A stretch of 64,000 nt of DNA from Vicinamibacterales bacterium (lineage in GTDB: Bacteria; Acidobacteriota; Vicinamibacteria; Vicinamibacterales; UBA2999), in contig DASTZI010000221.1 in assembly GCA_035764385.1 (NCBI GenBank), positions 482-64,481 on the forward strand. Direction: 5' to 3'. Below, piece after piece: positions 19,176 to 64,000 of this stretch (position 1 is the stretch's first letter; each line of letters begins with the position of its first letter). The position numbers and the translations under genes are program-made. The notes below the pieces were generated by a model. That model saw only the letters and a list, made by a program, of their open reading frames with translations, was not told the origin of the DNA and ran no database searches.

Positions 19176-20276
19176 ATGGAGGAAATAGAAACTGCCGTGA
19201 TTGGAGGCGGCGCCGTCGGTCTTGCGGCGGCGCTCGCCGTGGCGCGCCGGGGCCACACAGTGTGCGTCCTCGAGAAGGAGCCGCGCCCTGGCATGGCCAC
19301 GAGCACGCACAACAGTCAGGTGATCCATGCAGGGATCTACTACCCGGCCGGATCACTCAAAGCGCGACATTGCGTCGAAGGTGCGCGGCGGATGTACGAG
19401 TTCTGCGCCACCTACGGGGTCCCGCATCGGCGCTGTGGAAAGCTCGTAGTGGCTCACGACGAGAGCGAGATCCCGGCGCTCGAGCAGCTGCGGACAACGG
19501 GAGCGGCCAACGGTGTGGACGGTCTCGAAATCATCGATGCGGCCGCGGTGCGGACACGCGAGCCGCACATACGCGCCGCGGCAGCATTGCTTTCGCCGAA
19601 TTCCGGCATTCTCGAAGCGGAGGCACTTGTCCGCACGCTGGCGCGGTTGCTCAACGAACGCGGTGGTTACGTACTACCTGGATCGCCGGTCGTCGCCGGC
19701 CATCTCGACGATGCCGCCATCGAACTGGCCACGCCGGCAGAGCGCATACGAGCGCGATCCGTCGTCAACGCCGCAGGTCTTTACGCCGACGACGTGTCCG
19801 CCGCGCTTGGCGGATCGGCGTTTCGAATCTATCCGTGCCGCGGTGAATACGCGGAACTGGTGCCGTCCAAACGCGGCCTGGTCAATGCACTGGTCTATCC
19901 GCTGCCACACACCCACAGCCTCGGCACACATCTGAGCAAGACCGTTCACGGCAACGTCACGCTTGGTCCGACGGCGCGGTTTCAGGAGCGGAAAGACGAC
20001 TACGAACGCGATCGGCTGCCGCTCGAATCCTTTCTCGAACCGGCGCGACGGCTGCTTCCATCGTTGCAGCTCTCGGACCTGAGGCCCGGCGGGAGCGGCA
20101 TCCGTCCGAAGCTGCATGGACCAGATACGTCGTATGCCGATTTCATGATCGTCAGAGACGACAAATGCCCGCGCCTGGTGCAGGCTGCGGGCATTGAGTC
20201 TCCGGGGTTGACCGCCTGTCTCGCCATCGGCGAGCACGTGGCGGATTTGGTTGACGAGATCCTAGGTCGGTCTTAG
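19176..20276 (+). CDS. FAD-dependent oxidoreductase (DAO / L-2-hydroxyglutarate oxidase-like)
   Basis: [30 protein letters not shown] (FAD dinucleotide fold), [35 protein letters not shown]. Confidence 0.85.
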
Positions 20277-21151
20277 CGCCAGGCAGCCGTCAGCAATTGC
20301 ATCCAGCAGCGCGTACCAAGAATCGCGCGCGCCAGAGCCCGCTTCGGACTGAGCGGTGCGGGAGCGACGTGGGTGGCGTAGTACAGATACGCGCTTCGAT
20401 GGAATGCGCGGATCGCCGATCGCCGCGTGGTGCGGCTGGACTGTCCGACGCGATGAATCGCCGCCGCGCCTGGCACGTACCGCACGTGATAACCCTTCGC
20501 GCGCAGCCGTCGACAGAGGTCAGCGTCCTCCCAATACAGGAAAAAACGCTCGTCGAAGCCCTTCACGGCGTCGAGCGCGTCGCGCCGCGCAAGCATGCAC
20601 GCGCCGGATACCCAGTCGACCTCCACACTCTGCTGGCCGCTTCGAATCGCCTCGTCGACGACGACGTGGCGCCTCCCGATCGGAAGGAACGGGGCGACTC
20701 TCCGAAGCAGCGTCGTACGGCCAAACAACCCGGTAAGCATGTCCGGGTCTCCGCGCGCGCTTCCCTGCACGGAGCCATCGGGATTGAGCACACGAGGCCC
20801 GGTAATCGCACACTGCGGCTGCGCGTCGAGAACGCCTCGCAGCGCTGCGATCGCGCCGGCCATCAGGCGACAGTCGGGATTCATGATCAGGACGTATGGC
20901 GCGGTGGTCGCGGCGAGTCCCTGGTTCACGCCGCACGCAAAGCCGACATTCGCCTCGTTGCGAATCAGCCGGACGTCGGACAGAAACTGATTCACCTTTG
21001 CCGCGCTGCCATCGACCGACGCGTTGTCGACGACCATACCCTGCCAGGACTGCCCGGCCATCTCGTCGGCTATTGAGCGAAGCGCCCGCTCGAGCTCCGG
21101 CCCGGCGTTGTAGTTCACGAGGATCGCCGCAAACTGCGGGCCTGTGGTCAT
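20273..21151 (-). CDS. GT2-family glycosyltransferase
   Basis: [14 protein letters not shown]...[10 protein letters not shown]...[11 protein letters not shown]...[10 protein letters not shown] is the GT-A/GT2 pattern (rhamnosyltransferase-like). It is the last gene of the minus-strand array, and its stop overlaps the convergent gene's stop. Confidence 0.9.
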
Positions 21152-22155
21152 TTCTCAGCCACCCGCTCGCGCATATTCGCGTCGAACTGTTTCTCACGGA
21201 TCTTCGCCGACAACCACTTCGTCTCGAGCAGCGATGCAATCGCCGCCGCATTGACACGACGCCCGCGCTGAACGACCGCGCGTTTTCTCAACATGCGCGG
21301 CAAGCGCACGGCGGCCGCTGCCTTCGCGCGCAGGTACGGCCCGAGCATCCCCATACGCGCGAAATGCACGCCCGCCGCAACGTCATAGACGATGTGGCCA
21401 GGCAGCGTCTTCCACAGGAGACTGGCAGGGGTGTCCTTGAAATAGACCCATTCGAGATTGCGCTGTCCGTGAAACACGGACGACGGACTCACAGTTCCAA
21501 GCGTCGCGCTTCCCACGTGACGCACGACCGCGTCGGCGACATAGCGGCAGCGATATCCGCGAAGCCGGGCTCGATACGAGAGGTCCACGTCTTCGTGCGA
21601 CGCAAAAAAATCCTCGTCGAATCCGCCAAGCTCCTCGAAGACCGCCTTCGGCATCATGCAGGCCGCGCCGCAGACGCCAAAGACTTCCTGGCTGACCAGC
21701 GCCGCGGACGCGGGCTCGCCGTGGTGGCGTTTGAACGCCCCACCCCACCGCAGCACGCCATCGCCGGCGCTGTCGATCGTGTCGGGATCGTGCATGTACA
21801 CGATGCGTGAGGTGACCAGCGCACAGCGATTCCGTTCGTCAACGGCCGCCGCCAGCGCTCGCAGCCAGCCGGCATCCGCGGCGGTGTCGTTGTTCAAGAA
21901 GGCAACCAGATGTCCGCGGGCCTCGCGGACGCCGGCGTTGTTCCCTCCCGCAAAGCCGCGATTTCCGCCGAGGGCGACGAGTCTGACCCACGGGAATTGT
22001 GATCGCACGTACTCCGCGGTGCCATCAGTCGAACCGTTATCGACGACGATCGTTTCGGCGCGAACAGCGATCTGTGCGGCCACACTCGACAGGCACGTCT
22101 GCAGATGCTGACGGCCGTTCCACGTCACGATGACGACCGAAATCTCAGGCTCCAC
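21148..22155 (-). CDS. GT2-family glycosyltransferase
   Basis: ISVVIVTWNGRQHL...VVDNGSTDGT...NRGFAGGNNAG...SHEDVDLSYR. ATGA overlap with the downstream gene. Confidence 0.9.
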   Translation of the reverse strand: MEPEISVVIVTWNGRQHLQTCLSSVAAQIAVRAETIVVDNGSTDGTAEYVRSQFPWVRLVALGGNRGFAGGNNAGVREARGHLVAFLNNDTAADAGWLRALAAAVDERNRCALVTSRIVYMHDPDTIDSAGDGVLRWGGAFKRHHGEPASAALVSQEVFGVCGAACMMPKAVFEELGGFDEDFFASHEDVDLSYRARLRGYRCRYVADAVVRHVGSATLGTVSPSSVFHGQRNLEWVYFKDTPASLLWKTLPGHIVYDVAAGVHFARMGMLGPYLRAKAAAAVRLPRMLRKRAVVQRGRRVNAAAIASLLETKWLSAKIREKQFDANMRERVAEK

Positions 22156-23266
22156 GCGCGACCTCGCGATACACGTCGAGTGTCAGCCGTGCCGTTCGCT
22201 GCCAGGTGAAGGTCGCCGCGCGCGCCAGGCCGCGCGCTCTCAGATCGGTCCGCAGCGCTTCGTCGTTCAACAGCCGGATGATCGCCTCACGCCAGGCCGA
22301 GACGTCCCGCGGATCCAGCAGCACACCGGCGCCCCCGAGCACTTCTGGCATCGACGCCTCGTGGGATGCCAACACAGGCGTGCCGCTCGCCATCGCTTCG
22401 ACGAGCGGCAGACCGAATCCCTCGTATAAGGATGGATACACGAGTGCGAGCGCGCCTTGGTAGAGCGCTCGTAATCGACGTTCCTCCACTCGTCCAAGAG
22501 CCACGACCGCGTCCGGCGTACCGGCTTCGGCAGCCATCGCACACAACCCATCGGCGACACCACGATCGACGCCCGCAAGTACGAGCGACAGGGCCGCCGC
22601 GCCCCCGAAATGACGGCGCGCCTCGAGCAGCGCGTCGACGACAACCGTGAGGTTCCTCCGTTCATGCAAATCGCCGACGTGCAGCACAAATGGCTCGACG
22701 ACGTTTGCCGGCAAGTCGAGCGGCAGATTCGGATCACCGGCGCCGAACATGCTGTGAACACCCAGCGGAATCACCCTGATGCGCTCGAGCGGAATCCCGT
22801 ACGCGCGCGAGATCTCCGAGGCGGAGAACCTCGAGTCGGTGAGCACGCGCGACGGCGTCTTTGCGCTGCGGCGATAGAAGTACCGGCGGAGCCGATCGCG
22901 GCGGTACGGGTACCACTCCGGATGCAGCTCGTAGCTGACGTCGTGAATCGATAGGACGACGGGGACGCCGGCCCAGAACGGGGCGGTGTAGGAGGGAGCG
23001 TGAAGGACGTGGACGCGGGCGCGGGCGGCGGTCCGCGGCAGCCCGATCAGCGTCCAGCCTGCGTTGCTCGGCGGGTGCGCCGATTCGCGAACGCGTTCGA
23101 CGCCGGGGGGAATGGCACCGGCGTCACCGCCGAGGGCGACGATCTCCAGCGGCTCGCCAAGCAAGGTCAGCGCAGAGACGAGCTCGGTTGAGTAGCGGCG
23201 GATGCCCGCAGCGGGAGAGGTGAAGGCGCGGCCGTCGAAGCCGATTCGGAGCGTGCGGGAATTCAA
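22145..23266 (-). CDS. GT4-family (GT-B, retaining-type) glycosyltransferase
   Basis: C-terminal motif LVYPSLYEGFGLPLVEAMASGTPVLAS. TTG start at 23266. There is an 11-nt overlap with the next gene. Confidence 0.9.
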   Translation of the reverse strand: MNSRTLRIGFDGRAFTSPAAGIRRYSTELVSALTLLGEPLEIVALGGDAGAIPPGVERVRESAHPPSNAGWTLIGLPRTAARARVHVLHAPSYTAPFWAGVPVVLSIHDVSYELHPEWYPYRRDRLRRYFYRRSAKTPSRVLTDSRFSASEISRAYGIPLERIRVIPLGVHSMFGAGDPNLPLDLPANVVEPFVLHVGDLHERRNLTVVVDALLEARRHFGGAAALSLVLAGVDRGVADGLCAMAAEAGTPDAVVALGRVEERRLRALYQGALALVYPSLYEGFGLPLVEAMASGTPVLASHEASMPEVLGGAGVLLDPRDVSAWREAIIRLLNDEALRTDLRARGLARAATFTWQRTARLTLDVYREVARGA

Positions 23267-23281: not shown

Positions 23282-25069
23282 TTACTGAATACTCATATGC
23301 AGCCTGCGGACGGGGCACTCGCGCGATGCGCAGACCTGGCGGATGGTGTACTCGATGTTCCCGTTGATCAATGGGCTGCTCAGAATCACTTCATCCACCT
23401 TGTATTTCTGCATCGCCGCTTCGAGCTGATCGAGCGCGCCCCGCACCGGGACACCCATGATCCACCGATGCGTCTTCATCGGGTCGTCATCGATGAAGAC
23501 AACGGGATTCATCAGCCAATCAGGGTTGGCGCGCATTTCCCTGACGATCAGCTGACCGAACGCGCCGGCGCCGTATACGAGCACGCGCCGGCTCCTTTTG
23601 CTGCGCGCCGCCGCGACGAGACTCATGCTGCGGAATGAGACACGCGTCGCGACGATCGCGAGGAGGAGCAACAGCCCGTCGATGATGAAGACAACGCGGG
23701 AGAATCCTTCGAATCGGTAGAAATAGGCGACCGCGAGCACCGACAAGAGCGAGCCGGTGAAGACACCGCGCACGACGACAGCGATGTCGCGCAGGCTGAA
23801 TGTCTGCCACGATCGTTGATACAAGCCCGATCCGTACAACGAGGCAAGCTTGCAGCCGAGCACGACCGGCACCGATGCCGTGAAATACGGAAGAAAGTGA
23901 TTGAGGCCTTCCCCCTCGAAGCGCAGCCGGTAGGCAAAGTAGTAGCACGCCGTGATGAGGATCAGGTCCAGCATCACCTCGCCCGCGTGCCATTTGAACG
24001 TCAGGTCCTTCAGTAACGGAGCGAATGCCGAACGCTCGAGCGCCTTGAAATCCTGGGCGTTGTACGCGGGAACGCGTGCCAGGTAAATGCCGACGAGCGT
24101 CACGAGCACCGCAAAGAGCGCAGCGACCGGACTCATCTGCTCGATGCCACCCGTCACCAATGCCCACGCGGTCAGGCCGCCGACAATGCCCAGCAGGTAA
24201 AGAATGCGGACGGCGCTGCGCTCTGAGAACCCCAGCGAGACCAGACGATGCGACACGTGGTCGGTGCCGCCGCGAGTCGCGCTGCGTCCTGCAAACCGTC
24301 TGAGGACCAGGACGAAGCCGGTATCAAACAGTGGGACGACCAGGATGGCAACGACGAGAATGGATGTCCACGGGAACGGGGTCCGTTCCTGCAGGACCGG
24401 CACAAGTGACGCACCCGCGAGCACCGCGCCGATGAAGAGGCTGCCACAGTCACCCATGAACAAGCGGGCGGGCGGACGGTTCCAGTACAGAAACCCAATC
24501 AGCGCGCCGCACAAGGCGACGAGCAGCAGCACAATTGGAGCCCCGAGAGACGGTCCGAGGAGCCAGGCGAGAAAGGCGGCAGCGACAAACGCAACACCGG
24601 CCGCAAGACCGTCCATGTTGTCGAGCAGGTTGAACGCGTGGCAGACGCCGGCAAACCAGATCGTCGCAACGAGCGTATGCGTGAGCGGCAGCGCGTTGTC
24701 AGGGCGCCTCACCAGCGAGAAGACGAGGAACGCGCCGATGATGAGCGACGACACCAGCTTCGCCAGCGGCGTGAGCTGCAGACGGTCGTCGAGGACGCCG
24801 ACCACGAACATCGCGATACCCGCGAGCGGGATCGCGAGCCATGTGGGCGACATACCCGCTGGGGTCACACGCTGCACAATCAGCGCAAACCCGAGAACGG
24901 TCGCAACCGCGATCGCGACACCACCCATCGTCGGGGTGGGCTCGCTGTGCCATCGATCCGGCCTGGGTGGCACGACGGCACCGATGGCGGGCGCTCCTCG
25001 ACGTACGAGCGCGCACAGCGCCACTGACGCGAGCAGCGAGATCAACAGCGCCAGTGGAAGATGGATCAC
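23282..25069 (-). CDS. Polyprenyl-phosphate HexNAc-1-phosphate transferase (WecA/MraY family) fused to a 4-TM + Rossmann-like (CoA_binding_3 / WbpM-N-terminal-like) module
   Basis: N-terminal half: VGVLDDRLQL, NLLDNMDGLAAG, FMGDCGSLFIG, VPLFDTGFV (WecA/MraY motifs). C-terminal ~250 aa: extra TM helices, then RRVLVYGAGAFGQLIVREMRANPDWLMNPVVFIDDDP...VPVRG...VDEVILS. Confidence 0.85.
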   Translation of the reverse strand: MIHLPLALLISLLASVALCALVRRGAPAIGAVVPPRPDRWHSEPTPTMGGVAIAVATVLGFALIVQRVTPAGMSPTWLAIPLAGIAMFVVGVLDDRLQLTPLAKLVSSLIIGAFLVFSLVRRPDNALPLTHTLVATIWFAGVCHAFNLLDNMDGLAAGVAFVAAAFLAWLLGPSLGAPIVLLLVALCGALIGFLYWNRPPARLFMGDCGSLFIGAVLAGASLVPVLQERTPFPWTSILVVAILVVPLFDTGFVLVLRRFAGRSATRGGTDHVSHRLVSLGFSERSAVRILYLLGIVGGLTAWALVTGGIEQMSPVAALFAVLVTLVGIYLARVPAYNAQDFKALERSAFAPLLKDLTFKWHAGEVMLDLILITACYYFAYRLRFEGEGLNHFLPYFTASVPVVLGCKLASLYGSGLYQRSWQTFSLRDIAVVVRGVFTGSLLSVLAVAYFYRFEGFSRVVFIIDGLLLLLAIVATRVSFRSMSLVAAARSKRSRRVLVYGAGAFGQLIVREMRANPDWLMNPVVFIDDDPMKTHRWIMGVPVRGALDQLEAAMQKYKVDEVILSSPLINGNIEYTIRQVCASRECPVRRLHMSIQ

Positions 25070-25071
25070 TG

Positions 25072-26844
25072 TTACCCGCCGGACACCGGCTGATGGGCGC
25101 GCGCCATACGGTCGCCGACGCCGGATCGCTCTTCGGCCTCGTCCTGCTTCAATCGTACGGGCGCGTCGCGCAGCACAAACGGCGCTTTCGACAGGATGCC
25201 TTCGCAGATCGTGTCGAGTCCGGACGATGCGCCTGGCAGCAGCTGCTGCAGGCGATCCAGTTTGAGACGGTAGACGGGATAGCCAGCCTTCGGCTCGATA
25301 AAGGGCAGCGGAATCATTCGGTTGAAGAAGAAGTGATACGCGTACCGGCGCGCGCGCGCCAGCTGCGTTGCCGGCAGCCGCTCCGGTATCGGGAGCTGCG
25401 CCAGCAACCGGAAGTACTCGTCGGGCGAACTGGCGTCGAGCGTGATCCCCTTATTACGAATCCACGCCTCGCCCGCCACGATCACGGGTAATCCGACGCT
25501 CGTCAGCTCGACGCCCATCTTCGTGCCGTAGATGATGGCCGAATTACACAACGACATCAGCGCGTACGTGCTGAGCCCGCTCTCCGGGGGAACCACAATG
25601 ATGTTGGGCGCGAGTCGAGGCAGCCGTTTGCGCAACTCGGTGAGAATCGGCTGGCGCGACGGCGGAAAGCCGCTGATCTCCGCCGGATGCACGCGAATCA
25701 GCAGCTGCAGGTCCGGCCGCGTAGCGAAGTACTCGCACGTCTGGACGAGCCACTCGAACATGTTCGGAAATGCGTTGGCCGGATAGTGCAGCTGCGCGTC
25801 CCAGGATACGTTGGTCAGCAGCCCGATGACCGGCTTGGATGGGTCGACGCCGATCTGTCTGGCAATCGCAGCAGGATCCTGACTCGTCGGCCGATGGAAG
25901 ACGATCCAGTCGAACATGCCTTCCCGTCGGCTGTCGAGATACTGCAGCAGCTCTCGCTCCTGCGCGGCAGACAGCTCGAGCCGCTCCCAGTGATCCCGCG
26001 GCTCGCTCAGCAACGTATGGTGGTAGGTGTCGTCGTGGCTGAAGATGAAGCGGCGCTTGCGGTATGCCACGTTCCAGTTCGAAACCTGCACGCGCTCCTG
26101 ACGCGCGACCTCCCCCACGATTCCCCACGGCACATAGATCCCGTGGGTGAACACGGCCGATCGAAACCCGATCGCGCGGATCAGGTTGCGTGAGGCGAAG
26201 GCGGTCAGCAGCGCCGACTCCAGATACCTGCGGAGGATTGGTTCCGCCAGCGGCTCGTCGTCGAGCGTTCCGGTGGCAAAGAAACGCAGCGTACCGGCGT
26301 GCGCATGTTCACCGATGTTGAGGCCGTCGTAGACGAAGTGCTCGATTTCACCAACCGGGAGTGTCGAACCGACGCGTGTTGCCTCGGCACGATCGGCCGG
26401 CGTGAGCCATTCGCTCATGCGATGGACCTTGAGGCCGAGCCTGTTGTAGACAGCTTCCGCGGGCCACGTGCAGTCACGGCAGAGATCGCGTGAGGGACCA
26501 TGTTGAACGAAGCGCTGGAGATCCGGGTAGATTGAGGCTTCGCACTCGGCGCACGCGCTCATCGTCCCATCGCACAACAGCGCGTGCACCTCGGCGCCGC
26601 GGAACGTCAACGCCGCCGCCAGCGCACTTTCCAGTGTGACCGCATGCGCGTACGAACCGATCGCGGTCGCCATTAGCACGCGCGGGCCGCCTTCGGCGGA
26701 CGTCCGCGCTGAATTCCAGAGCGCCGGCTCGGCATCAAGCACGCCGCGCCAATCGGGATAGGCCTCGCGCCGGGCGTGGTACCAGCGCCGGGCGAGCCGC
26801 GTCGCTCGCCAGATCGACGGAAAGTTCCGGATGAAATGCTTCAC
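25072..26844 (-). CDS. Capsule-biosynthesis-like GT-B protein (KpsC/KpsS/TagF-type HP motif) with N-terminal Cys cluster; distant relative of Family B
   Basis: LLIRVHPAE ... ALMSLCNSAIIYGTKMGVELTSVGLPVIVAG resembles the HP plus xNSxxGxEA pattern of capsule-synthesis proteins. Cys cluster CDGTMSACAECE...CRDC. The start was chosen at GTG 26844 (GTGA overlap with the HAD stop). Confidence 0.7.
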   Translation of the reverse strand: MKHFIRNFPSIWRATRLARRWYHARREAYPDWRGVLDAEPALWNSARTSAEGGPRVLMATAIGSYAHAVTLESALAAALTFRGAEVHALLCDGTMSACAECEASIYPDLQRFVQHGPSRDLCRDCTWPAEAVYNRLGLKVHRMSEWLTPADRAEATRVGSTLPVGEIEHFVYDGLNIGEHAHAGTLRFFATGTLDDEPLAEPILRRYLESALLTAFASRNLIRAIGFRSAVFTHGIYVPWGIVGEVARQERVQVSNWNVAYRKRRFIFSHDDTYHHTLLSEPRDHWERLELSAAQERELLQYLDSRREGMFDWIVFHRPTSQDPAAIARQIGVDPSKPVIGLLTNVSWDAQLHYPANAFPNMFEWLVQTCEYFATRPDLQLLIRVHPAEISGFPPSRQPILTELRKRLPRLAPNIIVVPPESGLSTYALMSLCNSAIIYGTKMGVELTSVGLPVIVAGEAWIRNKGITLDASSPDEYFRLLAQLPIPERLPATQLARARRYAYHFFFNRMIPLPFIEPKAGYPVYRLKLDRLQQLLPGASSGLDTICEGILSKAPFVLRDAPVRLKQDEAEERSGVGDRMARAHQPVSGG

Positions 26845-29503: not shown

Positions 29504-29512
29504 TGAGTTATC

Positions 29513-29564
29513 GAATCCCGAATTCCCCTCGACTGCGCTCGGGGCAAGCCGAATACTGAATTCC
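29513..29564. repeat. Two pairs of GAAT-heptads (gaatccc gaattcc ... gaatact gaattcc) in the largest intercistronic gap
   Basis: Read directly: 29513-29526 and 29551-29564, separated by 24 nt. The gaatccc unit is the same as in the 15057-15084 array. Confidence 0.7.
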
Positions 29565-29565
29565 G

Positions 29566-30324: not shown

Positions 30325-30354
30325 TCACATTCGGACGCGCCGCAAAAGCGCGCC

Positions 30355-31863: not shown

Positions 31864-31873
31864 TGGCACGTCG

Positions 31874-33789: not shown

Positions 33790-33811
33790 GGTTCCTGCCA
33801 ATGGTGTCTCC

Positions 33812-36953: not shown

Positions 36954-36956
36954 CGC

Positions 36957-56369: not shown

Positions 56370-57898
56370 AGCCAGCTGACTTCGCGTCCCTCGCTATCGG
56401 CGCGCCGGAGCTTTCCTTCGATCTCGCGCTTGTTGAGCAGCAGCTTGCGACCGCGCGGGATTCGCGCCAACGCTCGTAATGTGATGAACCCGAATCGTGC
56501 GACGGTGGCCGGCGCGCTCACGGCATGCTGCGGCCGCACCGTGCCGAGTGCTTCGACCGCATCTGCGATCGCGCACGTGGCGGACATGTCGAGACCAAGC
56601 GGTCTCACGAATGTATGGACGAACTCGCGCTGTCGTCGAAGAATCTCTTGCGTGTTCCCACCCAGAATGGAGGCCAACTGCCCACAGTGTTCGGCAAGAG
56701 AGCGCGAAATGGTCAGTAAGCCTCCCTCCACGAGATATCGAAAGTGCAGCGTCCCTTCCTGATTCGGTCGAAACTCTTCGGGCAAAATGGCCAATACGGG
56801 AGGACCGACGATGCCTGCCTCGATGAACGCACTGGTGTTCAGGCCGACAACGGCAGCGCTGTAATGGAGTGAGTCGAAGTAATCGGCGCGCGACTCCGTG
56901 TCGATCGGATTGTCGCCCCATAAGGCGAGGTCGGGTACGCTTCGCCCGTCGACCTCATCCCACTCACGCTTCCTGGATGGGTGCGGGCGCACCAGGATCG
57001 CCGCGTCGCGCAGGGACGGATCCGAAGAATTTCGCAGCGCGGCAGCCCACCTGAGCACGAACTGCGCCTCCGACGGACTTCCTGGAAACAGGGCCGAACA
57101 TACCCACAGGACGACTGGCCGGCCATCGGGCAACCCGACGCGGTGCACGAAATCCGCACGGCTGCGAGAGGGGCGCTGGTCGAACCAGCGGTCGAACGAT
57201 TGTGCACCCGTCACGACCACGCGCTCCGCAGGCACGCCATGCATCTCGGTCGCTTCGCGCCGCTGCACGTCGTTCCATACGAACAAGCGATCGGGCATGT
57301 CGCGGATGATGGCCTTGCTGGACAGATGGTCCCAGCTCCAGACGCACACTGCGGTCGGGATACCGCGCGCTCGCGCGCTGCGCAACAGGTCCAGCTGCGA
57401 TGAAGGGACAAGCCCAATCAGCGGTGTGATCACCACCGCGTCAGGCGCCTGCACGTCGAGAAAACGTTCAATGTCCGGACTTGCGGGAACCGAACGATCG
57501 ATCGCGTGCAGCGCGCTCGCAAGCAGGCGGCGCGCCCGCGGCGAGCGCAGCAAGCCATGCTCGGCGAGCGTAATGAAGCCGCTCGGCGTCCGCACTTCCG
57601 CCCGTTGCCGCAGCGCGGGGGTGCCTTCGTACTGTGGCTCGAGGTAACGGAGGTAATCGAGCGTCAGCCTGACCTTAGTGGCGAGGAACCGGGTCTTCTG
57701 CTCGCGGGTGGGAACTCTCCCGTAACTGACGTTCGAATGAGCTGCCGCCAGGCGCTGGACGATCGACCCTCCACCCAGCGCGGATTCGTGGCGCTCCGCG
57801 CCGAGATGGAGCTGGTGCCCCCGTGCCGCCAGCTCGTCCACCATTGACTCGATGTTGCGGTAGTAGCCGTTGTGAAGAGCGGCGATGAGAATTTTCAC
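56366..57898 (-). CDS. Family B uncharacterised putative GT-B transferase, paralogue B2
   Basis: Start at GTG 57898 (VKILIAALHNGYYRN; GTGA overlap). WSWDHLSSKAIIRDMPDRLFVWND, ILVRPHPSRKREW, HYSAAVVGLNTSAFIEAGIVGPPV, EGTLHFRYLVEGGLL. Confidence 0.85.
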   Translation of the reverse strand: MKILIAALHNGYYRNIESMVDELAARGHQLHLGAERHESALGGGSIVQRLAAAHSNVSYGRVPTREQKTRFLATKVRLTLDYLRYLEPQYEGTPALRQRAEVRTPSGFITLAEHGLLRSPRARRLLASALHAIDRSVPASPDIERFLDVQAPDAVVITPLIGLVPSSQLDLLRSARARGIPTAVCVWSWDHLSSKAIIRDMPDRLFVWNDVQRREATEMHGVPAERVVVTGAQSFDRWFDQRPSRSRADFVHRVGLPDGRPVVLWVCSALFPGSPSEAQFVLRWAAALRNSSDPSLRDAAILVRPHPSRKREWDEVDGRSVPDLALWGDNPIDTESRADYFDSLHYSAAVVGLNTSAFIEAGIVGPPVLAILPEEFRPNQEGTLHFRYLVEGGLLTISRSLAEHCGQLASILGGNTQEILRRQREFVHTFVRPLGLDMSATCAIADAVEALGTVRPQHAVSAPATVARFGFITLRALARIPRGRKLLLNKREIEGKLRRADSEGREVSWL

Positions 57899-58923
57899 CG
57901 GCTCTGTCTTCGCAGCCCCGTGCGATGCGTGAACATCAGGATTTCGTACACCACCTTGCGGGTCGCGCGGCGGCTCTTGCCGGCCAGCTTCCTGCCGCCA
58001 ACAAGCGTGTAGTAGACAGCGTGATGAAAGGCCTTCTTCACCAGCTTCTTCGCAAAGTGCACTTGATCGAGACCACGACCAACGCGCTTCGACGTTTCGG
58101 TCTTTCGGGTCGCGCGCCAGGTTGATGCAATGACATAGGTCGCAATCATCGAGACGTCGTATCCTTCGCGCCGCAGGAGCACGGCGTGCTGGAGCGACGG
58201 CGGCCAGTTGAATCGCGACGGCGGCGAACCGGCAAACAGCGAAACGCGCTGCCGGTCGACACTCGCGCCATCGGACTGCCGCCGGCTCCACAACGGCTCA
58301 GCGACCTGGCGGATCTCGCCTTGGTGCGACAGCTCCGCGACCAGGAGGCGGTCCGGATTGAGAACAGACCGGAAGATACCGGCCGCCTCGAGCGCGCGCA
58401 CGCGCATGAGGCCGTAGACCATGTCGCCGGATCCGAAGCCGCTCCAGCAGAAATGCCGCCACCGGTCGCGCGGATCGCCAATCCCTGATGTGTCGAACAT
58501 CCGCGGCTCTTTGTCGACGAGCGCGCCGCCCTCGTCGACACGAAGCGTCTGTGGATATACGAGCACCGCCTCCGGATGCGCGTCGAGCTCCGCGACCATG
58601 CGCGCCAGCCATTGCGGAGCCCATCGATCGTGATCGCTGACCCACGCGAAGTACTCGGCAGATGGATGCTCGCGGCGCGCAATCTGGACGACTTCCCGCC
58701 ACGTCGGCACCATCCCACGCCGTTCCGGATGACGCCAGTACCGAACTCGGCGATCTCGCGTTTCGAACTCGCGCGCGATGTGCTCGCTGTCCGTGTTCGT
58801 GCCATCGTCGAGCATGACGAGCGCGAAATCGCCATCGGTCTGGGCGAGAAGCGACTCGGTCGCTTCGCGGAGGTGCCCGGCGTTGTTGTACAAGGTCATG
58901 CCGAGCACAACGCGCGGCTTCAC
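57895..58923 (-). CDS. GT2-family glycosyltransferase
   Basis: VLGMTLYNNAGHLREATESLLAQTDGDFALVMLDDGTNTDS fits the GT-A fold with a DxD-type region. GTG start. Confidence 0.85.
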   Translation of the reverse strand: MKPRVVLGMTLYNNAGHLREATESLLAQTDGDFALVMLDDGTNTDSEHIAREFETRDRRVRYWRHPERRGMVPTWREVVQIARREHPSAEYFAWVSDHDRWAPQWLARMVAELDAHPEAVLVYPQTLRVDEGGALVDKEPRMFDTSGIGDPRDRWRHFCWSGFGSGDMVYGLMRVRALEAAGIFRSVLNPDRLLVAELSHQGEIRQVAEPLWSRRQSDGASVDRQRVSLFAGSPPSRFNWPPSLQHAVLLRREGYDVSMIATYVIASTWRATRKTETSKRVGRGLDQVHFAKKLVKKAFHHAVYYTLVGGRKLAGKSRRATRKVVYEILMFTHRTGLRRQSR

Positions 58924-58924: not shown

Positions 58925-60634
58925 TCAGTGATGGCCCACCTCGATCAACCGTTTGACGCTCGCCTTCAGACGCGCGACCTGCTTGCGGGCGCTGAGACCT
59001 CGACGCCACTTGCGCCATTCCTTGGCGGCCCGTTCCTGGCGTGTTGCACGGATGATCGCTTCGCGTTCACGGTGCTCGCGCTCGCGGTAAGCGGCCCTCG
59101 CGCCGAGTATCTGTTCCTTCTGTGCACGATTGGCGCGCTCGCTGTCGTCGCGCGCGATGTCTATGGCATCCATCAGCAGCCATCTCCCGATCGCCGTGTT
59201 CGACGCAGCAATCGCGGCTCTCAACATGAGCGGCGGGTCATCGAACGTGGGCTCAGGCTGCGCATGTCCTGCGGAGCGTCCGAGCCCCTCGACCGTCTCA
59301 ACAAACCTCGGCGTTGATGGCGACTCGAGACCGCCGGGCCTGACAAACGCGGTGAGAAAGCGTCGGTTGCGCGCCTCGCGCGATCCATCGCTCTTCATGA
59401 CCCCGGCGAGGTGCGACAGATGCGAGCCGACGTCGGGCGCGGTGTGCAGCAGCCCGCCTTCCACATTCAACAGATACCGGAAATGCACCATACCGTCCTG
59501 ATGCATCCGATACGCCGGCAGCTGCATCGTCAGGACCGGCCGTCCGATGATGGCAGCCTCGAGGAACACGGTCGTGCAGAGACCCACAACGGCGCGGCTG
59601 TAGTAGATCGAATCGAAGTAGTCCGCCTTCGCGTCTGCGTCGATCGGGTTGCGTCCGCCTATCGCTACATTCTCCAAACCGTCGAGAGAAATGCCCGTCC
59701 ATTCCTTGATCCGCTCGGGGTGCGGTCGTACGAGTACACCCGCAGTCCGAAGAACAGGATCGCTGCTGGATCGAAGCGCCTGGATCCATTCCTTGACGAA
59801 CACGGGCTCCGCCGGGTCTGGAACAGGGCTCATCGCCGAGCAGACGTAGAGGACGAATGGGCGCTCTGGATCGAGGCCCACGGCGCGACAAAACTGCTGC
59901 CGCGACCGCTCCGGGTGTTTGTCGAACCATTGGTCGTAGCACTGCGCGCCTGTCACGATGATGCGGGATGCCGGAATGCCGTGCATCTCGATGGCCTCGC
60001 GCTTCTGCACGTCATTCCAGACAATCGTCACGTCCGGTTGGATGTGCACCAGCGCCTTGCTCGACAGGTGGTCCCAGCTCATGATGCAGGCGGCGGTTGG
60101 AACACCAAGCGACCGCGCGGCCTTCATCTGCTCCATCGCAAACGAGCGCGAGAAGGTCAGCGATGTCAGCAGCACAACGTCCGGCTGCTGAGCCTCGAGT
60201 AACCTGGTGATCGCACGGCTCGGCGGCAGTCTTCGCTCGATGGCCTTGAGCCACGCGGCCGTCCTGCGGTGGCCAACGACCGCCCCTCCAACACCCGATG
60301 TGATCCACTTGATGACGCGGGGTGTGCGTTCGATGTTGCGAAGGCGGAGCTTTTCAGCCGACGCATAGCGTGAATCGAGAAAGCGCACGTAGTCGAGCGC
60401 AAAACGCAGCTTCTGGGCGAGGTGGAACCATGGCTCGTCCACCGGCGACGGCGTCAGTCCGAAGCTGACGTTGGGATATTCGGCGGCAAGTCGCTCGACA
60501 AACGCCTGGCCGCCGAAGGTTTCCCGCTCGTCGGCGAGCAGGTGGACGTCATGCCCTCGCCCGGCGAGCGAACGGATGACAGACTCGAAGTTGCGATAGT
60601 TCGCAAAGTGCAGCGCCGTTAAGAGAACCTTCAT
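58925..60634 (-). CDS. Family B uncharacterised putative GT-B transferase, paralogue B3, with basic coiled C-terminal tail
   Basis: Start at MKVLLTALHFANYRN (ATG 60634). MSWDHLSSKALVHIQPDVTIVWND, VLVRPHPERIKEW, YYSRAVVGLCTTVFLEAAIIGRPV, DGMVHFRYLLNVEGGLL. Tail REREHREREAIIRATRQERAAKEWRKWRR. Confidence 0.85.
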   Translation of the reverse strand: MKVLLTALHFANYRNFESVIRSLAGRGHDVHLLADERETFGGQAFVERLAAEYPNVSFGLTPSPVDEPWFHLAQKLRFALDYVRFLDSRYASAEKLRLRNIERTPRVIKWITSGVGGAVVGHRRTAAWLKAIERRLPPSRAITRLLEAQQPDVVLLTSLTFSRSFAMEQMKAARSLGVPTAACIMSWDHLSSKALVHIQPDVTIVWNDVQKREAIEMHGIPASRIIVTGAQCYDQWFDKHPERSRQQFCRAVGLDPERPFVLYVCSAMSPVPDPAEPVFVKEWIQALRSSSDPVLRTAGVLVRPHPERIKEWTGISLDGLENVAIGGRNPIDADAKADYFDSIYYSRAVVGLCTTVFLEAAIIGRPVLTMQLPAYRMHQDGMVHFRYLLNVEGGLLHTAPDVGSHLSHLAGVMKSDGSREARNRRFLTAFVRPGGLESPSTPRFVETVEGLGRSAGHAQPEPTFDDPPLMLRAAIAASNTAIGRWLLMDAIDIARDDSERANRAQKEQILGARAAYREREHREREAIIRATRQERAAKEWRKWRRGLSARKQVARLKASVKRLIEVGHH

Positions 60635-60659: not shown

Positions 60660-61670
60660 TCAGGGCGCCCGGCGCGCGACAACGCGCAGGTTCTTACCGT
60701 AACAACCGGCGTTGGCGAGGAACTGGACGACATCGGCAATTTCCGTCAGCGCCTGCGCATCGCGATGGAGTACCTCGCGGCGGTACCAGATGTAATCCTC
60801 GATGTCGAGACCTTCGGTGACGATCAGCTCCGGCGTCAACGAATGCCGCAGCATCAGATCGCGCATTGTCGTCGGCGTGTAGTAATTGAGATGGTGCGTC
60901 GGCCAGATGAAGTGCGCGTTGGCGCCCATCAGCAGCCGCGACGCCGAGTCGAAGTTTGGCACATAGAGAAACAGAATGCCGTCGGGCGCGAGCAGATCCA
61001 CGCAGGCCCGCAGCGTGCGTCCTGGATCGAGGAGGTGCTCGAGCACGTCGAACAACGACACTGCGTCGAAGGTGCCTGCGGCAAGACCCGCGTCCTCGAG
61101 CCCGACCGTCCGCAGGTCGAGCCCGCGCGACCGTCCGAATTCGATCGCCGAGGGGTTCAGATCGATCCCAGTCGCCTTCCAGCCGTTGGCCTGAGCGGCC
61201 TCGACGACAAAGCCCGTGCTGCAGCCGACATCGAGGTACCTTGGCGCACGGCCGTTCGCCATCCGCAAATGCTCGCCCATGATGCGCACACGCTCCGCAC
61301 CGAAGCGCTTCACGCGGTAGTCATGACTGTTGATCCCGAGGTCCCGGACGATGTCCTGGTATGCCTGTGAGGCGTAGACCTGCTGGTAGTGTGCCTGGTC
61401 GAAGGTCGGATTGACGAAGACGAGATCGCACTCCCTGCAGCGGACGATCCGCATGTGATCTTTTTCGAGTTCGAGCGTCTCCTCCACACTGCCGCACGTG
61501 GGGCACGCCCGGCGTGACAGCAACTCCTGCGGAATGTGGCCAAAGCGCCTGACGAGCTCGTCGATCGGGTGGGTCCGCTTGTCGATCAGGCTCTTATACG
61601 ACGCGCCTGGCCGCAGCTGGTTCACGTCCACCGGCTGGTATTCAGAGACGCGTCTATACGGAATCTGCAT
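60660..61670 (-). CDS. SAM-dependent methyltransferase with N-terminal Cys4 zinc-ribbon, paralogue 2
   Basis: CPTCGS...CRECDLVFVNP, then YLDVGCSTGFVVEAA, VSLFDVLEHL. It has the same architecture as 49557..50483. Confidence 0.85.
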   Translation of the reverse strand: MQIPYRRVSEYQPVDVNQLRPGASYKSLIDKRTHPIDELVRRFGHIPQELLSRRACPTCGSVEETLELEKDHMRIVRCRECDLVFVNPTFDQAHYQQVYASQAYQDIVRDLGINSHDYRVKRFGAERVRIMGEHLRMANGRAPRYLDVGCSTGFVVEAAQANGWKATGIDLNPSAIEFGRSRGLDLRTVGLEDAGLAAGTFDAVSLFDVLEHLLDPGRTLRACVDLLAPDGILFLYVPNFDSASRLLMGANAHFIWPTHHLNYYTPTTMRDLMLRHSLTPELIVTEGLDIEDYIWYRREVLHRDAQALTEIADVVQFLANAGCYGKNLRVVARRAP

Positions 61671-62358
61671 TCGAACGCGCAGCGACGACCGACTCGGCGA
61701 GTCGTAAATCCCACGGTGTGTCGATGTCGAGCGACTCTTCCGGCGTCATGATCAGCGGCCACGTCTCGTCGCCGTACAGCGAACCCTGTTCGATGACACG
61801 CGCATGAACCGCCAGCACGGCCGGACCATTACGCGCGTAGAGACGAGGTTTGTCCTGTCGCCGCGTCGGCCCGGAACCTTCGAGGAATGGCTTGAGAACT
61901 CCTTCGTCGAGCCGCATCACCGATGTCGGGTTGAACTGATGCGGTAATTCCACAACCGAGACGACTGAGTCGCCGCGCACGCGCTGCAGCCAGTCGATGG
62001 CTGCGTCGATGTGCTGCCCGCGGCGCAGCGGTGACGTCGGCTGAAGCAGGACGACCATATCGGCGTCGAAACCGGCTTCACGCATTGCGCGAATGGCATG
62101 CTGCAGGACGGGCAGCATGGGAGCGTCGTCTGCGGCGAGCGACGCGGGTCGCATGAACGGCACTTCGAGCCCGAGCAACCTCGCGCAGTCAGCCACGCGA
62201 GCGTCGTCGGTGCTCACGATCGTGCGGGTCAGCTTCTTGCTTTCTTTGACTGCATCCGCGGTGTAGGCAAGCAACGGGCGTCCACAGAGTGGCGCCAGGT
62301 TCTTCATCCCAATGCCTTTGGACCCACCGCGGGCGGGGATGACCCCGAGAACGTTCAT
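61654..62358 (-). CDS. CMP-nonulosonic acid synthetase (acylneuraminate cytidylyltransferase family), paralogue 3
   Basis: Start at MNVLGVIPARGGSKGIGMKNLAPLCGRPLLAYT (ATG 62358, sharing 1 nt with the upstream TAA). LLQPTSPLRR. Confidence 0.9.
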   Translation of the reverse strand: MNVLGVIPARGGSKGIGMKNLAPLCGRPLLAYTADAVKESKKLTRTIVSTDDARVADCARLLGLEVPFMRPASLAADDAPMLPVLQHAIRAMREAGFDADMVVLLQPTSPLRRGQHIDAAIDWLQRVRGDSVVSVVELPHQFNPTSVMRLDEGVLKPFLEGSGPTRRQDKPRLYARNGPAVLAVHARVIEQGSLYGDETWPLIMTPEESLDIDTPWDLRLAESVVAARSNADSV

Positions 62359-63512
62359 TAATAGGACAAACGCTTCTGGATGCGCAGCGGCGTGTCGACG
62401 AGGATCTTCGCGATGCGTGCGCCCGCGCCGCCGTCGCCATACAGATGGCTCGACGGGTATCGGCCACGGGCAAGCTGCTTCTTGACCGCAGCGGCAATCT
62501 CCCGCCGGTCGTATCCGACGTCGCTCACGTTGTCCGCCCGATCCCGACCCTGCTGCCGGCTGCCGATATTGACGGTTGGAACACCGATGTACGCACCTTC
62601 GCGTACCGGCGCGGACGAATTCCCGACGGCGCACGCGCAGCTCAACATCAATTTGACGTAGGTCTCGATCGGGAAATTCTTGTAAAAGCGGATGTACTCA
62701 GGGCGATAGTGCTCCCTGAATTTCCGCATGCCGCGCGAGATGTCCTCGGACCCGGCGTCGGCATTGGGCCACAGCATGATCGTCGGCATCTGCAACTCGT
62801 GCAGCGCCATCAATGTCTCGACGATCTGGTCTTCGCCATGACCGTATTCGGTCGTAACCGGATGCTGACTGACGAGCAGGAAGGGTTTGTCGAGCGTGAT
62901 GTGCGCGCCGACGCCCTCGCGATCAAGCCAGTCAGGCGAGCCGAGGTGTCCATTGGCCCTCGCCATCTCGGCGACCAGGTCGATGCGCGGACACCCGACG
63001 ACATGAACAGTAGCTGGATCCTCCCCCATGCGGACAATGCGCTCGGCCGCGGCGGCATTCGCGGGGAAGTGCAGGTGCGACAGCTTCGTCACCGCGTGGC
63101 GGATGCTCTCGTCGATGGTGCCGCTGATTTCTCCGCCCATCGTGTGCGCCAGCGGAATGTTCATATAGGCCGCGGCAACCGCCGTCGCCATGGTCTCGAA
63201 ACGATCGCCGACGCTGACCACAACATCGGGCTTCAGCATGCCGAAGATTGTCGGCAGCTCGAGCAACCCCAGGCCGGTCGACTTCGCCATCGTGCCCGGT
63301 GTTTCTCCTTCGACGATCATCGTCACCTTTGCATCGGGGTGAAATCCGTCGGCTTCGATGACGTCCACAACCGAGCCGAAGCGATCCAGCAACGCCGATG
63401 CTCCGACGACAAGTTGCAGCTTCAAACCGGGCGTTGCCCGCACCGCGCACATGACCGACTTGATGCTGCTGTAGTTCGCGCGGGAGCCGACGACGATGCA
63501 GATCTTCCTCAT
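62358..63512 (-). CDS. UDP-N-acetylhexosamine 2-epimerase, hydrolysing (NeuC-type), paralogue 2
   Basis: MRKICIVVGSRANYSSI, DRFETMATAVAAAYMNIPLAHTMGGEISGTIDESIRHAVTKLSHLH, GNSSAPVREGAYIGVPTVNIGSRQ. Confidence 0.9.
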   Translation of the reverse strand: MRKICIVVGSRANYSSIKSVMCAVRATPGLKLQLVVGASALLDRFGSVVDVIEADGFHPDAKVTMIVEGETPGTMAKSTGLGLLELPTIFGMLKPDVVVSVGDRFETMATAVAAAYMNIPLAHTMGGEISGTIDESIRHAVTKLSHLHFPANAAAAERIVRMGEDPATVHVVGCPRIDLVAEMARANGHLGSPDWLDREGVGAHITLDKPFLLVSQHPVTTEYGHGEDQIVETLMALHELQMPTIMLWPNADAGSEDISRGMRKFREHYRPEYIRFYKNFPIETYVKLMLSCACAVGNSSAPVREGAYIGVPTVNIGSRQQGRDRADNVSDVGYDRREIAAAVKKQLARGRYPSSHLYGDGGAGARIAKILVDTPLRIQKRLSY

Positions 63513-64000
63513 CGGGTTCCCTGAGCATCGACGTTCTGCGCGCGCCGCGCTTCGGCACGGCGCAATGCCTTGAGACGTCGTGCTCCACGAAGCTTCTCGA
63601 CCGATGCGAGCTCGCGAGAGGAGAGCGTCCAGCGCTCGTATCGATCGTCATCGCGCATGCGTGCGGCGCGATGCGCAATCCAACGCCACATGGGGACCAA
63701 TGGACTGGAGCGCAGCACTGTTACCGTCAGGCCATTCATCGATTCGACCGCCTCGACGAACCGCTGGGCGGCTGAAACGTCGAGGCCGTGAGGCCGCACG
63801 AATTCGCGTACGAACGGCTTGATGAGCTGTTTGGGCTCGTTCAATGCGTGGTCGAGTTGTGGGATGTGTTCGTCGAAGCTGCGCGCCACCTCGAGCACGC
63901 CGCCTCCAGTGTTCAGCAGGTAAGTAAAGTGCACAGTGCCGGTCTGGTTATCGGCCGTTTCGGGAATCATCAGTGTGTGAACTGGACGACCCAGAATCGC
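63509..64000 (-). CDS. Family B uncharacterised putative GT-B transferase, paralogue B4, C-terminal part only (5' end beyond the right edge)
   Basis: The frame is open to the window edge. Own translation gives AILGRPVHTLMIPETADNQTGTVHFTYLLNTGGGVLEVARSFDEH, which aligns with B1 (AAVVGKPVHTVLDEHISRHNQEGTIHFHYLLDVNGGLLRVARTLDEH). Basic tail RRLKALRRAEARR. Confidence 0.8.
   Translation of the reverse strand, partial: AILGRPVHTLMIPETADNQTGTVHFTYLLNTGGGVLEVARSFDEHIPQLDHALNEPKQLIKPFVREFVRPHGLDVSAAQRFVEAVESMNGLTVTVLRSSPLVPMWRWIAHRAARMRDDDRYERWTLSSRELASVEKLRGARRLKALRRAEARRAQNVDAQGTR

Follow-up and report, generated by a model that had tools for sequence, protein, structure and literature searches.

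What does a 40-gene, single-strand array in the genome of an uncultured soil acidobacterium make, and by which route would the product leave the cell? The array occupies much of a 64,000-nucleotide (nt) stretch from a Vicinamibacterales bacterium (contig DASTZI010000221.1, positions 482 to 64,481; hereafter the window), where every gene from position 20273 to the right edge lies on the minus strand. It is a locus of a known kind, a polysaccharide biosynthesis gene cluster with nonulosonic-acid (NulO) modules. On balance, we favor the reading that this chromosomal locus encodes the synthesis of a complex heteroglycan of the cell surface that carries methyl groups, is assembled by the mechanism proposed below, and is exported by an ABC transporter. 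Nonulosonic or other 2-ulosonic acids would be abundant in this polysaccharide, which is probably O-antigen-like or capsule-like. What is new is part of the content, found in a soil lineage that has hardly been studied: two large uncharacterized GT-B-like families (A and B), their conserved fusion (B-A), an orphan pair of GT-C-like and ankyrin proteins, and a third module, of unusual make-up, for a cytidine monophosphate (CMP)-activated acid.

Gene content supports the reading as a glycan-assembly locus, which an initial annotation had proposed from the DNA letters alone. There are three CMP-ulosonic-acid modules, with two NeuB, two NeuC, and three CMP-synthetases. The core NulO enzyme set (NeuC, NeuB, and CMP-synthetase) is thus present: both NeuC proteins exceed the TIGR03568 cut-off and all three CTP_transf_3 proteins exceed the Pfam cut-off, while the two NeuB proteins match Pfam with E values of 1e-64 to 1e-75, yet fall under the equivalog cut-offs. 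Amino sugars are covered by a WbpB/E/D-like branch (GFO dehydrogenase, DegT aminotransferase, and hexapeptide acetyltransferase) and by a LegB/C-like branch (4,6-dehydratase, second DegT, and second acetyltransferase), and sugar-nucleotide genes go on to the left of a convergent thiO gene (15810-19074). The initiating enzyme (23282-25069) has 12 hydrophobic segments and matches Pfam Glycos_transf_4 with an E value of 1e-28, along with NCBIfam models for WecA and MraY below their cut-offs; initiation is thus of the WecA/PNPT type, as in ABC-transporter-dependent pathways. The transferase inventory first drawn up is essentially correct (four GT2, one GT4, the WecA-like enzyme, five Family A copies, and four Family B copies, with B1 and A5 fused), and an all-against-all BLASTP agrees on both families and on the fusion. 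Four methyltransferases had been counted; Pfam finds three in the array (at 42518, 49557, and 60660), as the fourth (14545-15804, plus strand) lies outside it. From right to left, the array and its flanking sugar-nucleotide genes read as follows.

63509-64000, minus: B4, Family B copy 4, C-terminal 163 amino acids (aa) only (B profile match, E 1.5e-28)
62358-63512, minus: NeuC2, NeuC-type hydrolyzing UDP-HexNAc 2-epimerase (Pfam Epimerase_2; TIGR03568, 380 bits against a cut-off of 235.9)
61654-62358, minus: CMP1, CMP-nonulosonate synthetase (Pfam CTP_transf_3; PseF model, 141 bits, below cut-off)
60660-61670, minus: MT1, S-adenosylmethionine (SAM) methyltransferase (Methyltransf_23/11/12)
58925-60634, minus: B3, Family B copy 3, with a charged helical C-terminal tail (BLASTP, 44-46% to B1 and B2; BFO_1060, E 3e-7, below cut-off)
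57895-58923, minus: GT2d, GT2 glycosyltransferase (Pfam PF00535)
56366-57898, minus: B2, Family B copy 2 (BLASTP; >3,134 homologues, none with a Pfam domain; BFO_1060, E 1.3e-6)
53712-56369, minus: B1-A5 fusion, 885 aa (BLASTP; AlphaFold2 [AF2] model; Foldseek)
52676-53734, minus: A4, Family A copy 4 (BLASTP; A profile)
51642-52679, minus: NeuB1, NeuB-type nonulosonate synthase (Pfam NeuB and SAF; TIGR03569, 293 bits, below cut-off)
50483-51640, minus: NeuC1, NeuC-type hydrolyzing 2-epimerase (TIGR03568, 365 bits against a cut-off of 235.9)
49557-50483, minus: MT2, SAM methyltransferase (Pfam)
48169-49560, minus: orphan polytopic protein, probably a GT-C-type periplasmic glycosyltransferase (AF2 and Foldseek)
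47709-48155, minus: ankyrin-repeat protein with an N-terminal hydrophobic anchor (Pfam Ank; hydrophobic segment at residues 14-32)
47014-47712, minus: CMP2, CMP-nonulosonate synthetase (CTP_transf_3)
45974-47017, minus: A3, Family A copy 3 (BLASTP)
44772-45977, minus: A2, Family A copy 2 (BLASTP)
43632-44768, minus: short-chain dehydrogenase (SDR)-type epimerase/dehydratase, GalE- or heptose-6-epimerase-like (Pfam, NCBIfam)
43189-43635, minus: small nucleotidyltransferase, RfaE domain II- or TagD-like (Pfam CTP_transf_like; TIGR02199, E 3.7e-19, below cut-off)
42518-43192, minus: MT3, SAM methyltransferase (Pfam)
42042-42518, minus: hexapeptide N-acetyltransferase, NeuD/PglD/WbpD-like (Pfam, NCBIfam)
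41017-42045, minus: GFO/IDH/MocA oxidoreductase, UDP-GlcNAc 3-dehydrogenase-like (WbpB-like) (Pfam, NCBIfam)
39900-41003, minus: DegT1, DegT-family sugar aminotransferase (Pfam, NCBIfam)
39235-39903, minus: second hexapeptide acetyltransferase (BLASTP, NCBIfam)
37991-39217, minus: A1, Family A copy 1 (BLASTP)
36987-37994, minus: NAD-dependent sugar 4,6-dehydratase, LegB-like (Pfam, NCBIfam)
35778-36959, minus: DegT2, DegT-family aminotransferase, PseC/ArnB/LegC-like (Pfam, NCBIfam)
34817-35749, minus: ArnC/GtrB-type polyprenyl-phosphate glycosyltransferase, GT2 with a C-terminal membrane anchor (alignment to Escherichia coli ArnC; transmembrane segment)
33812-34807, minus: U331, 331 aa, C-terminal part GT-B-like by eye only (kept in relatives by synteny)
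32725-33801, minus: NeuB2, second NeuB-type synthase (Pfam, NCBIfam)
31874-32728, minus: SDR (Pfam)
30355-31869, minus: aldehyde dehydrogenase (Pfam, NCBIfam)
29566-30324, minus: CMP3, third CMP-ulosonate synthetase (CTP_transf_3)
27539-29503, minus: transketolase-family thiamine diphosphate enzyme (Pfam, NCBIfam)
26841-27542, minus: HAD phosphatase (Pfam)
25072-26844, minus: U590, soluble, 590 aa, possibly GT-B, with an 'RVHPAE' motif (Capsule_synth, E 0.086 only)
23282-25069, minus: WecA/MraY-type polyprenyl-phosphate HexNAc-1-P transferase, fused to a WbaP-N-terminal-like transmembrane and CoA_binding_3 domain (Pfam Glycos_transf_4 and CoA_binding_3)
22145-23266, minus: GT4 glycosyltransferase (Pfam)
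21148-22155, minus: GT2b, GT2 glycosyltransferase (Pfam)
20273-21151, minus: GT2a, GT2 glycosyltransferase, the last array gene, whose stop overlaps the convergent thiO (Pfam)
15810-19074, minus: flanking RmlD-like reductase, 4,6-dehydratase, and UDP-sugar 6-dehydrogenase (Ugd), also beside the array in related loci L045, L051, L052, L055, and L057

Two products in this list stay without a family. U331 has neither a family nor a PDB match, and U590, whose gene is kept beside the WecA-like gene in relatives, has no PDB match in a single-sequence search; hidden Markov models of Families A and B, run against all window proteins, place both outside either family.

How the product is exported cannot be read from the window directly. 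Pfam and NCBIfam matches, hydrophobicity, and further comparisons reveal no Wzx, Wzy, Wzz, Wza/Wzc, or KpsMT and no ligase there, in agreement with the initial annotation, and no Wzm/Wzt either. By hydrophobicity, the array encodes just two polytopic proteins, the WecA-like enzyme and the GT-C-like protein, neither of which gives a Wzx- or Wzy-like match, and no array protein has a Pfam or NCBIfam match to a MOP-family flippase or Wzy polymerase. For a group 2 capsule system (KpsMT, KpsS/KpsC), no KpsM or KpsT is found in the window, the sole signal being the non-significant Capsule_synth (GT107) match of 25072-26844. The relatives are more telling. In locus L004, hflC is followed by a same-strand Wzm/TarG-like ABC-2 permease and then by tandem B genes, an order repeated in L037, so that the Wzm-like permease is the first array gene in both. 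In L079, wzm (E 1e-23 to Aquifex Wzm) and wzt (E about 1e-55 to Wzt/TarH) stand immediately before the gene for a homologue of the fused initiating enzyme (47% identity), and NeuB-NeuC-CMP loci labeled Anaerolineales carry wzm-wzt about 4 kb upstream. There is also a precedent, as the polylegionaminic O-antigen of Legionella pneumophila serogroup 1 is made with WecA and Wzm/Wzt (PMC3766260). Taken together, the wzm(-wzt) genes of relatives, WecA-type initiation, the lack of Wzx/Wzy, and the Legionella precedent point to an ABC-transporter-dependent route, and we infer export via a Wzm/Wzt-type transporter encoded outside the window.

An ABC system does flank the array, within a likely operon (8480-12707, minus strand). 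This operon encodes an ABCA/NosF-like ATPase, a transglutaminase-like membrane protein, and a large permease of the PF16949 'ABC_tran_2' family, which has about 12-14 hydrophobic segments and lacks a PDB relative. The ABC system was considered as the exporter (8480-11205) and rejected, since the ATPase, the only ABC ATPase of the window, is not Wzt/KpsT-like and the permease lacks Wzm/KpsM similarity. No link between this operon and the glycan array was found.

Families A and B have no Pfam and no significant NCBIfam assignment. A search of PDB sequences with profiles of both families gave nothing meaningful, profile comparison detects no relation between the two, and tblastn of A and B against 72,556 plasmids found no match. 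Family B has >3,100 homologous clusters (at 90% identity), all annotated as hypothetical and none with a Pfam domain. Paralogues B1, B2, and B3 match the same stretch of NCBIfam model BFO_1060 (NF046086) with E values of 3e-7 to 3e-6; that family includes Tannerella forsythia transferases for derivatives of pseudaminic acid (Pse) and legionaminic acid (Leg), shown by knock-out and complementation (PMC5420450). An AF2 model of the B1-A5 fusion (pLDDT 82) lays out an N-terminal B domain, a 56-residue helix plus disordered linker, and a C-terminal A domain. In a Foldseek search of PDB, GT-B-fold enzymes come out on top (probability 1.0, E down to 8e-10, TM up to 0.69 as normalized on the target), among them UDP-GlcNAc 2-epimerases, MshA, TagF, WaaG, and macrolide glycosyltransferases. 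Query ranges are not reported, and the matches are attributed to the B half because the aligned ~450-530 columns roughly match its length. The Family B model has two Rossmann-like lobes that match solved structures, and a GT-B fold is thus predicted for Family B.

Among 1.84 billion clusters, Family A accounts for 1,687 (representatives at 50% identity). It shows strictly conserved motifs (GPWLSE.G.E.LYW.PF, SRGG, LHPS, D.H.D, and FVGT.G) and, in the AF2 model, an alternating beta/alpha, two-lobe architecture. Its C-terminal half aligns weakly with the E. coli GT9 enzymes WaaC/F/Q/U (hhalign E 3e-4 over 95 columns). There is a faint NCBIfam match to TibC (E 0.085) and no Pfam Glyco_transf_9 match. 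Elsewhere, Family A members are fused to B, GT2, or sulfotransferase domains, the last exemplified by homologue P0371.

The B1-A5 protein is the best-conserved transferase of the array, with 63-98% identity across the clade and a nearly constant length (about 885-910 aa in most full-length matches), while other B genes vary in number among relatives, with up to about seven B-like matches per 21-kb locus. In Neisseria meningitidis serogroups W and Y, the capsule polymerase unites a hexosyltransferase and a sialyltransferase domain in one polypeptide. These enzymes offer a model for B1-A5, likewise two transferase domains joined by a linker and encoded beside sialic-acid synthesis genes, although no sequence similarity was detected in Pfam, NCBIfam, or PDB sequences and a polymerase activity of B1-A5 is purely putative. 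By this analogy, B1-A5 is a candidate bifunctional backbone polymerase, and the other copies may be linkage-specific transferases. The three methyltransferases and the helical tails on B proteins would be compatible with a candidate chain terminator or length control at the nonreducing end.

The initial annotation had singled out 48169-49560 as the only unexplained polytopic protein. It is indeed an orphan, but its predicted structure is GT-C-like rather than transporter-like. The protein has 463 aa and at least 8 hydrophobic segments, and belongs to a family of about 130 sequences without annotation. Scanning 39 members in Pfam at E values up to 10 returned only noise in all 39, the window protein has no NCBIfam match, and the family profile finds nothing meaningful among PDB sequences. 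Its AF2 model is of high confidence (pLDDT 88.8, pTM 0.90). In a Foldseek search of PDB, only the GT-C enzymes Pmt4 (probability 0.96, TM 0.41) and AftD (probability 0.94, TM 0.35) superpose on it to a meaningful extent. MFS transporters rank at the top of the same search, with a TM of about 0.13, and were discarded as spurious. No match to MurJ, Wzy, or WaaL structures was found by Foldseek. With hhalign, the family profile shows no relation to E. coli WaaL or to the polytopic open reading frames (ORFs) upstream of the array in L005, and a probability of <1% against E. coli ArnT.

The catalytic acid of GT-C enzymes usually lies directly after the first transmembrane helix. In the orphan family, Asp34 is invariant in 39 sequences and stands between helix 5-26 and two short loop helices, which by the inferred topology places an acidic residue in the first extracytoplasmic loop. 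The array also encodes an enzyme that could supply a GT-C enzyme with its donor: over its full length, the GT2 of 34817-35749 can be aligned with E. coli ArnC (27% identity, 303 aa, E 7e-42, including the C-terminal hydrophobic region), and its gene adjoins that of an ArnB/PseC-like aminotransferase. On this modeling, 48169-49560 is probably a GT-C-type periplasmic glycosyltransferase and not an exporter. The polytopic and ankyrin genes always occur together, at different positions in L012-L014; both are found in L003 and L013, and both are absent from L001, which is otherwise syntenic, so the pair is dispensable for the pathway.

These parts can be joined into a proposed mechanism. The locus makes its own activated sugars, as homology shows. 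Three CMP-activated ulosonic acids come from two NeuC/NeuB modules and from a third module in which a CMP-synthetase is joined by a HAD phosphatase, a transketolase, an aldehyde dehydrogenase, and an SDR. The dehydrogenase, aminotransferase, and acetyltransferase provide a 2,3-diamino sugar, and there is a 4-amino-6-deoxy sugar as well. Also by homology, the WecA-type enzyme starts the chain on undecaprenyl phosphate at the cytoplasmic face, where GT2, GT4, Family A, and Family B enzymes would extend it, with cytidine-nucleotide sugars such as CMP-NulO as putative donors for Family B. The B-A fusion would act as a two-site polymerase of a repeating backbone, side or terminal residues would be attached by the tandem B and A copies, which vary, and methyltransferases would modify sugars or cap the chain. 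Judging from relatives, the lipid-linked glycan would then cross the inner membrane through the Wzm/Wzt-type transporter rather than Wzx/Wzy. As an optional decoration, the ArnC-like GT2 would form an undecaprenyl-phosphate amino sugar, from which the GT-C-like protein and its anchored ankyrin partner may transfer the sugar onto the glycan or lipopolysaccharide (LPS) in the periplasm.

Known systems resemble the array in part. The chromosomal LPS locus of Legionella pneumophila serogroup 1 likewise combines NulO synthesis, WecA-type initiation, and ABC export (putative in the present case), and its NulO-polymerizing transferases are also poorly defined (PMC3766260). In contrast, the present array exceeds it in size, its CMP-ulosonate modules number three and its transferases about 18, two GT-B-like families in it are undescribed, and its wzm/wzt genes would lie outside the window. 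The BFO_1060 transferases of T. forsythia are, like Family B, soluble, GT-B/TagB-like, and encoded beside CMP-NulO synthesis genes (PMC5420450), whereas Family B proteins are longer (510-570 aa), tandem expanded, and sometimes fused to Family A. With the Arn (PmrHFIJKLM) pathway and the three-component glycosylation systems of the Gtr type, the array shares an ArnB-like aminotransferase beside an ArnC-like undecaprenyl-phosphate-sugar synthase, along with a putative GT-C-like membrane transferase; the present polytopic protein differs in lacking detectable ArnT similarity and in having an ankyrin partner, and there is no ArnE/F- or GtrA-type small flippase gene.

Several observations weigh against the proposed mechanism. 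No Wzm permease or Wzt ATPase is found in or beside the locus within the window, tblastn with the L079 Wzm included; no Wzt ATPase adjoins the Wzm-like genes of L004 and L037, and the nearest overall relatives, L003 and L005, have divergent sulfotransferase, GT2, and polytopic genes upstream and not wzm. With 26.8-29.8 bits against the BFO_1060 cut-off of 200, B1-B3 fall outside that family. In structure, Family B comes closest to 2-epimerases and, as these share the GT-B fold, its transferase activity is putative. The link of Family A to GT9 has a probability of only 40%, and the GT-C case consists of two Foldseek matches with TM values of 0.35-0.41 and E values of about 0.1, without sequence support.

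A rival is a Wzx/Wzy-dependent version of the same locus, in which a repeat unit is built on undecaprenyl diphosphate, flipped by a Wzx, and polymerized by a Wzy, both encoded elsewhere or unrecognizably divergent. The number of different transferases, about 18, does speak for a repeat unit of some size and complexity and against a simple polymer, and the unannotated polytopic proteins upstream in L005 could hide a flippase or polymerase. However, the 64-kb window holds no MOP or Wzy-like protein, the polytopic protein resembles neither MurJ, Wzy, and WaaL structures nor the WaaL sequence, and related arrays have Wzm-type permeases, which makes this version rather unlikely. We consider it improbable that the locus serves protein glycosylation, general O- or S-layer glycosylation as in Tannerella and the Bacteroidota, with the orphan polytopic protein as the oligosaccharyltransferase. 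The remote similarity of Family B to the Pse/Leg transferases of the Tannerella O-glycan speaks for it, and so does the pairing, within the array, of a GT-C-like membrane enzyme with a periplasmic partner of the protein-binding (ankyrin) kind; yet the pair is missing from L001, a 463-aa polytopic protein lacks the large periplasmic domain of the PglB/STT3 kind, and an ArnC-like synthase fits transfer of a single sugar better.

Less probable still is that Family A, Family B, or both are GT-B-fold enzymes that modify sugar nucleotides, or TagF-like phosphotransferases that build a teichoic-acid-like polymer. The structural matches of the B-A model, with 2-epimerases at the top and TagF also listed, would allow this, and the array includes a TagD/RfaE-II-like nucleotidyltransferase, while a TagB-like domain has been described in the Tannerella enzymes (PMC5420450). 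On the other side, two bona fide NeuC epimerases above cut-off are already present, the tandem expansion of B genes is typical of linkage-specific transferases, and fusions to GT2 and sulfotransferase domains also suit transferases. A flagellin glycosylation island of the Campylobacter/Aeromonas type is effectively refuted for the window. The Campylobacter jejuni island resembles the array in its tens of genes, its Pse/Leg pathways, and its expanded paralogous families of putative transferases, but neither the window nor the related loci examined has a Maf (PF01973), flagellin, or flagellar gene, and the membrane-bound WecA-type enzyme implies lipid-linked assembly. We therefore retain the Wzm/Wzt-dependent surface heteroglycan as the favored reading. 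A more far-reaching joint proposal is put forward tentatively: A and B would be new families of NulO or ulosonic-acid glycosyltransferases, the universally conserved B-A fusion a new bifunctional NulO-heteropolymer polymerase, and the polytopic protein, along with its anchored ankyrin partner, a new family of GT-C type for completion or attachment of the glycan in the periplasm.

A further possibility concerns the third CMP-acid module, in which transketolase, SDR, aldehyde dehydrogenase, HAD, and CMP-synthetase may form a NeuB-independent route to a CMP-activated 2-ulosonic acid. The block 26841-32728 (HAD, transketolase, CMP3, aldehyde dehydrogenase, and SDR) is kept together in relatives. 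L051, L054, and L055 lack NeuB2 and the SDR and retain the aldehyde dehydrogenase, CMP-synthetase, transketolase, and HAD, implying that the third acid may arise without NeuB-type condensation, speculatively, for instance, by a ketol transfer and a subsequent oxidation that yields a 2-ulosonic acid.

The array is tightly packed, as first described. Its 40 contiguous minus-strand ORFs all have the coordinates given by the initial annotation, the largest intercistronic gap is 62 nt (29504-29565), and the array is open at the right edge, since the ORF from 63509 has no upstream stop before position 64000. The total of 20 junctions overlapping by 4 or 1 nt also holds, except that 42518 is a 1-nt (TGATG) and not a 4-nt overlap. 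There are 17 four-nt NTGA overlaps (21148, 26841, 27539, 32725, 37991, 39900, 42042, 43189, 43632, 45974, 47014, 47709, 49557, 52676 [TTGA], 56366, 57895, and 63509) and 3 one-nt overlaps (42518, 50483, and 62358). When the most parsimonious starts are taken, overlaps make up 23 of the 39 junctions and the median spacing is -4 nt. GTG or TTG accounts for 21 of 39 starts (20273-63512), and a Shine-Dalgarno-like 4-mer is found at 12 of 39 (about 31%, versus 19% in the background). Re-initiation at overlapping stop/start sites may be the main mode of translation; as an NTGA overlap is easily obtained by chance once the frame offset is right, translational coupling stays presumptive. Independent gene calling on contigs of relatives reproduces both the overlaps and the lengths of the proteins, third-position GC is high throughout the chain, and the window has 63% GC with uniform composition (0.61-0.65). 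A promoter/terminator consensus scan of 40-60 kb showed no enrichment over shuffles, a result that is uninformative for an acidobacterium, and Rfam and tRNA scans gave no matches. A single 44-kb transcript is unproven. In L001, an opposite-strand block of APS kinase, GT2, and sulfotransferase genes (L001 6568-8829) splits the array in the middle, so the downstream half there must have its own promoter.

To place the array, we compared it with the related loci, numbered here with L. Homologues carry the names Acidobacteria or Vicinamibacterales, with best matches in L004, from a subdivision-6 acidobacterial metagenome-assembled genome (MAG; NeuC2 91% identical), and L005 (90%). L003 and L005 keep the order from B4 to A3/A4 at 73-90% identity, and L043-L057 keep that from NeuB2/U331 to GT2a, the convergent thiO, RmlD, dehydratase, Ugd, methyltransferase, and thiG at 60-94%. 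L001 and L052 share one 126.9-kb contig, on which the equivalent array is roughly 47 kb. As the order is kept in many relatives, the window array is not chimeric, a possibility that the initial annotation had raised against its own reading. B4 is 72% identical to the first array gene (521 aa) of L003/L005 and only 58% to the L004 copy. Upstream of that first gene in L003/L005 are a gap of about 280 nt and then divergent genes, and the B4 match thus puts the array start most likely about 1.1 kb past the right edge.

Other features of the clade and the window stand beside these. A sulfotransferase and a GT2 are encoded upstream of the array in L003 (760-2519) and L005 (6413-8160); the window itself has no sulfotransferase gene, and the glycan of the clade may, from such gene neighborhoods, the sulfotransferase block inside the L001 array, and the P0371 fusion, be sulfated. 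On L005 1-6824 lie genes for a GtrB-like GT2 and for three or more polytopic proteins without annotation, of which two measure 716 and 529 aa and one is a YfhO-like fragment; this points to an upstream region rich in GT-C-like enzymes. NeuC2 is also 71-74% identical to genes in Chloroflexi MAGs labeled Anaerolineales (L021-L026 and L036), with the NeuB-NeuC-CMP triad alone shared, which suggests either that soil phyla have exchanged the NulO module horizontally or that the MAGs are mis-binned. At the left border, thiG (13762-14541, plus strand) and the DAO-family thiO-like gene (19176-20276, plus strand) are not adjacent, being separated by the coiled-coil methyltransferase (14545-15804, plus strand) and three minus-strand sugar-nucleotide genes, a layout conserved in relatives. 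Farther left, 2091-4688 (plus strand) encodes an 865-aa fusion of AMP-binding, carrier-protein, and PlsC-type acyltransferase domains, an Aas-like lipid-remodeling enzyme.

To our knowledge, few bacterial transferases for Leg, Pse, and related nonulosonic acids are known, and the Legionella O-antigen polymerase is still unassigned. A literature search on nonulosonic acids in Acidobacteria or on Vicinamibacter glycosyltransferases found nothing relevant. The locus offers two abundant, unannotated candidate families in a genomic setting that gives concrete donor hypotheses, from an abundant soil group that is almost uncultured. If the assignments were false, it would still be a well-documented, unusually long and tight polysaccharide gene cluster. 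If they are true, Families A and B would be new at the level of CAZy families and would supply enzymes for producing NulO-containing glycans, and the locus would give a first view of the envelope glycan of the Vicinamibacterales, with a bearing on soil aggregation, phage and predator interactions, and desiccation tolerance.

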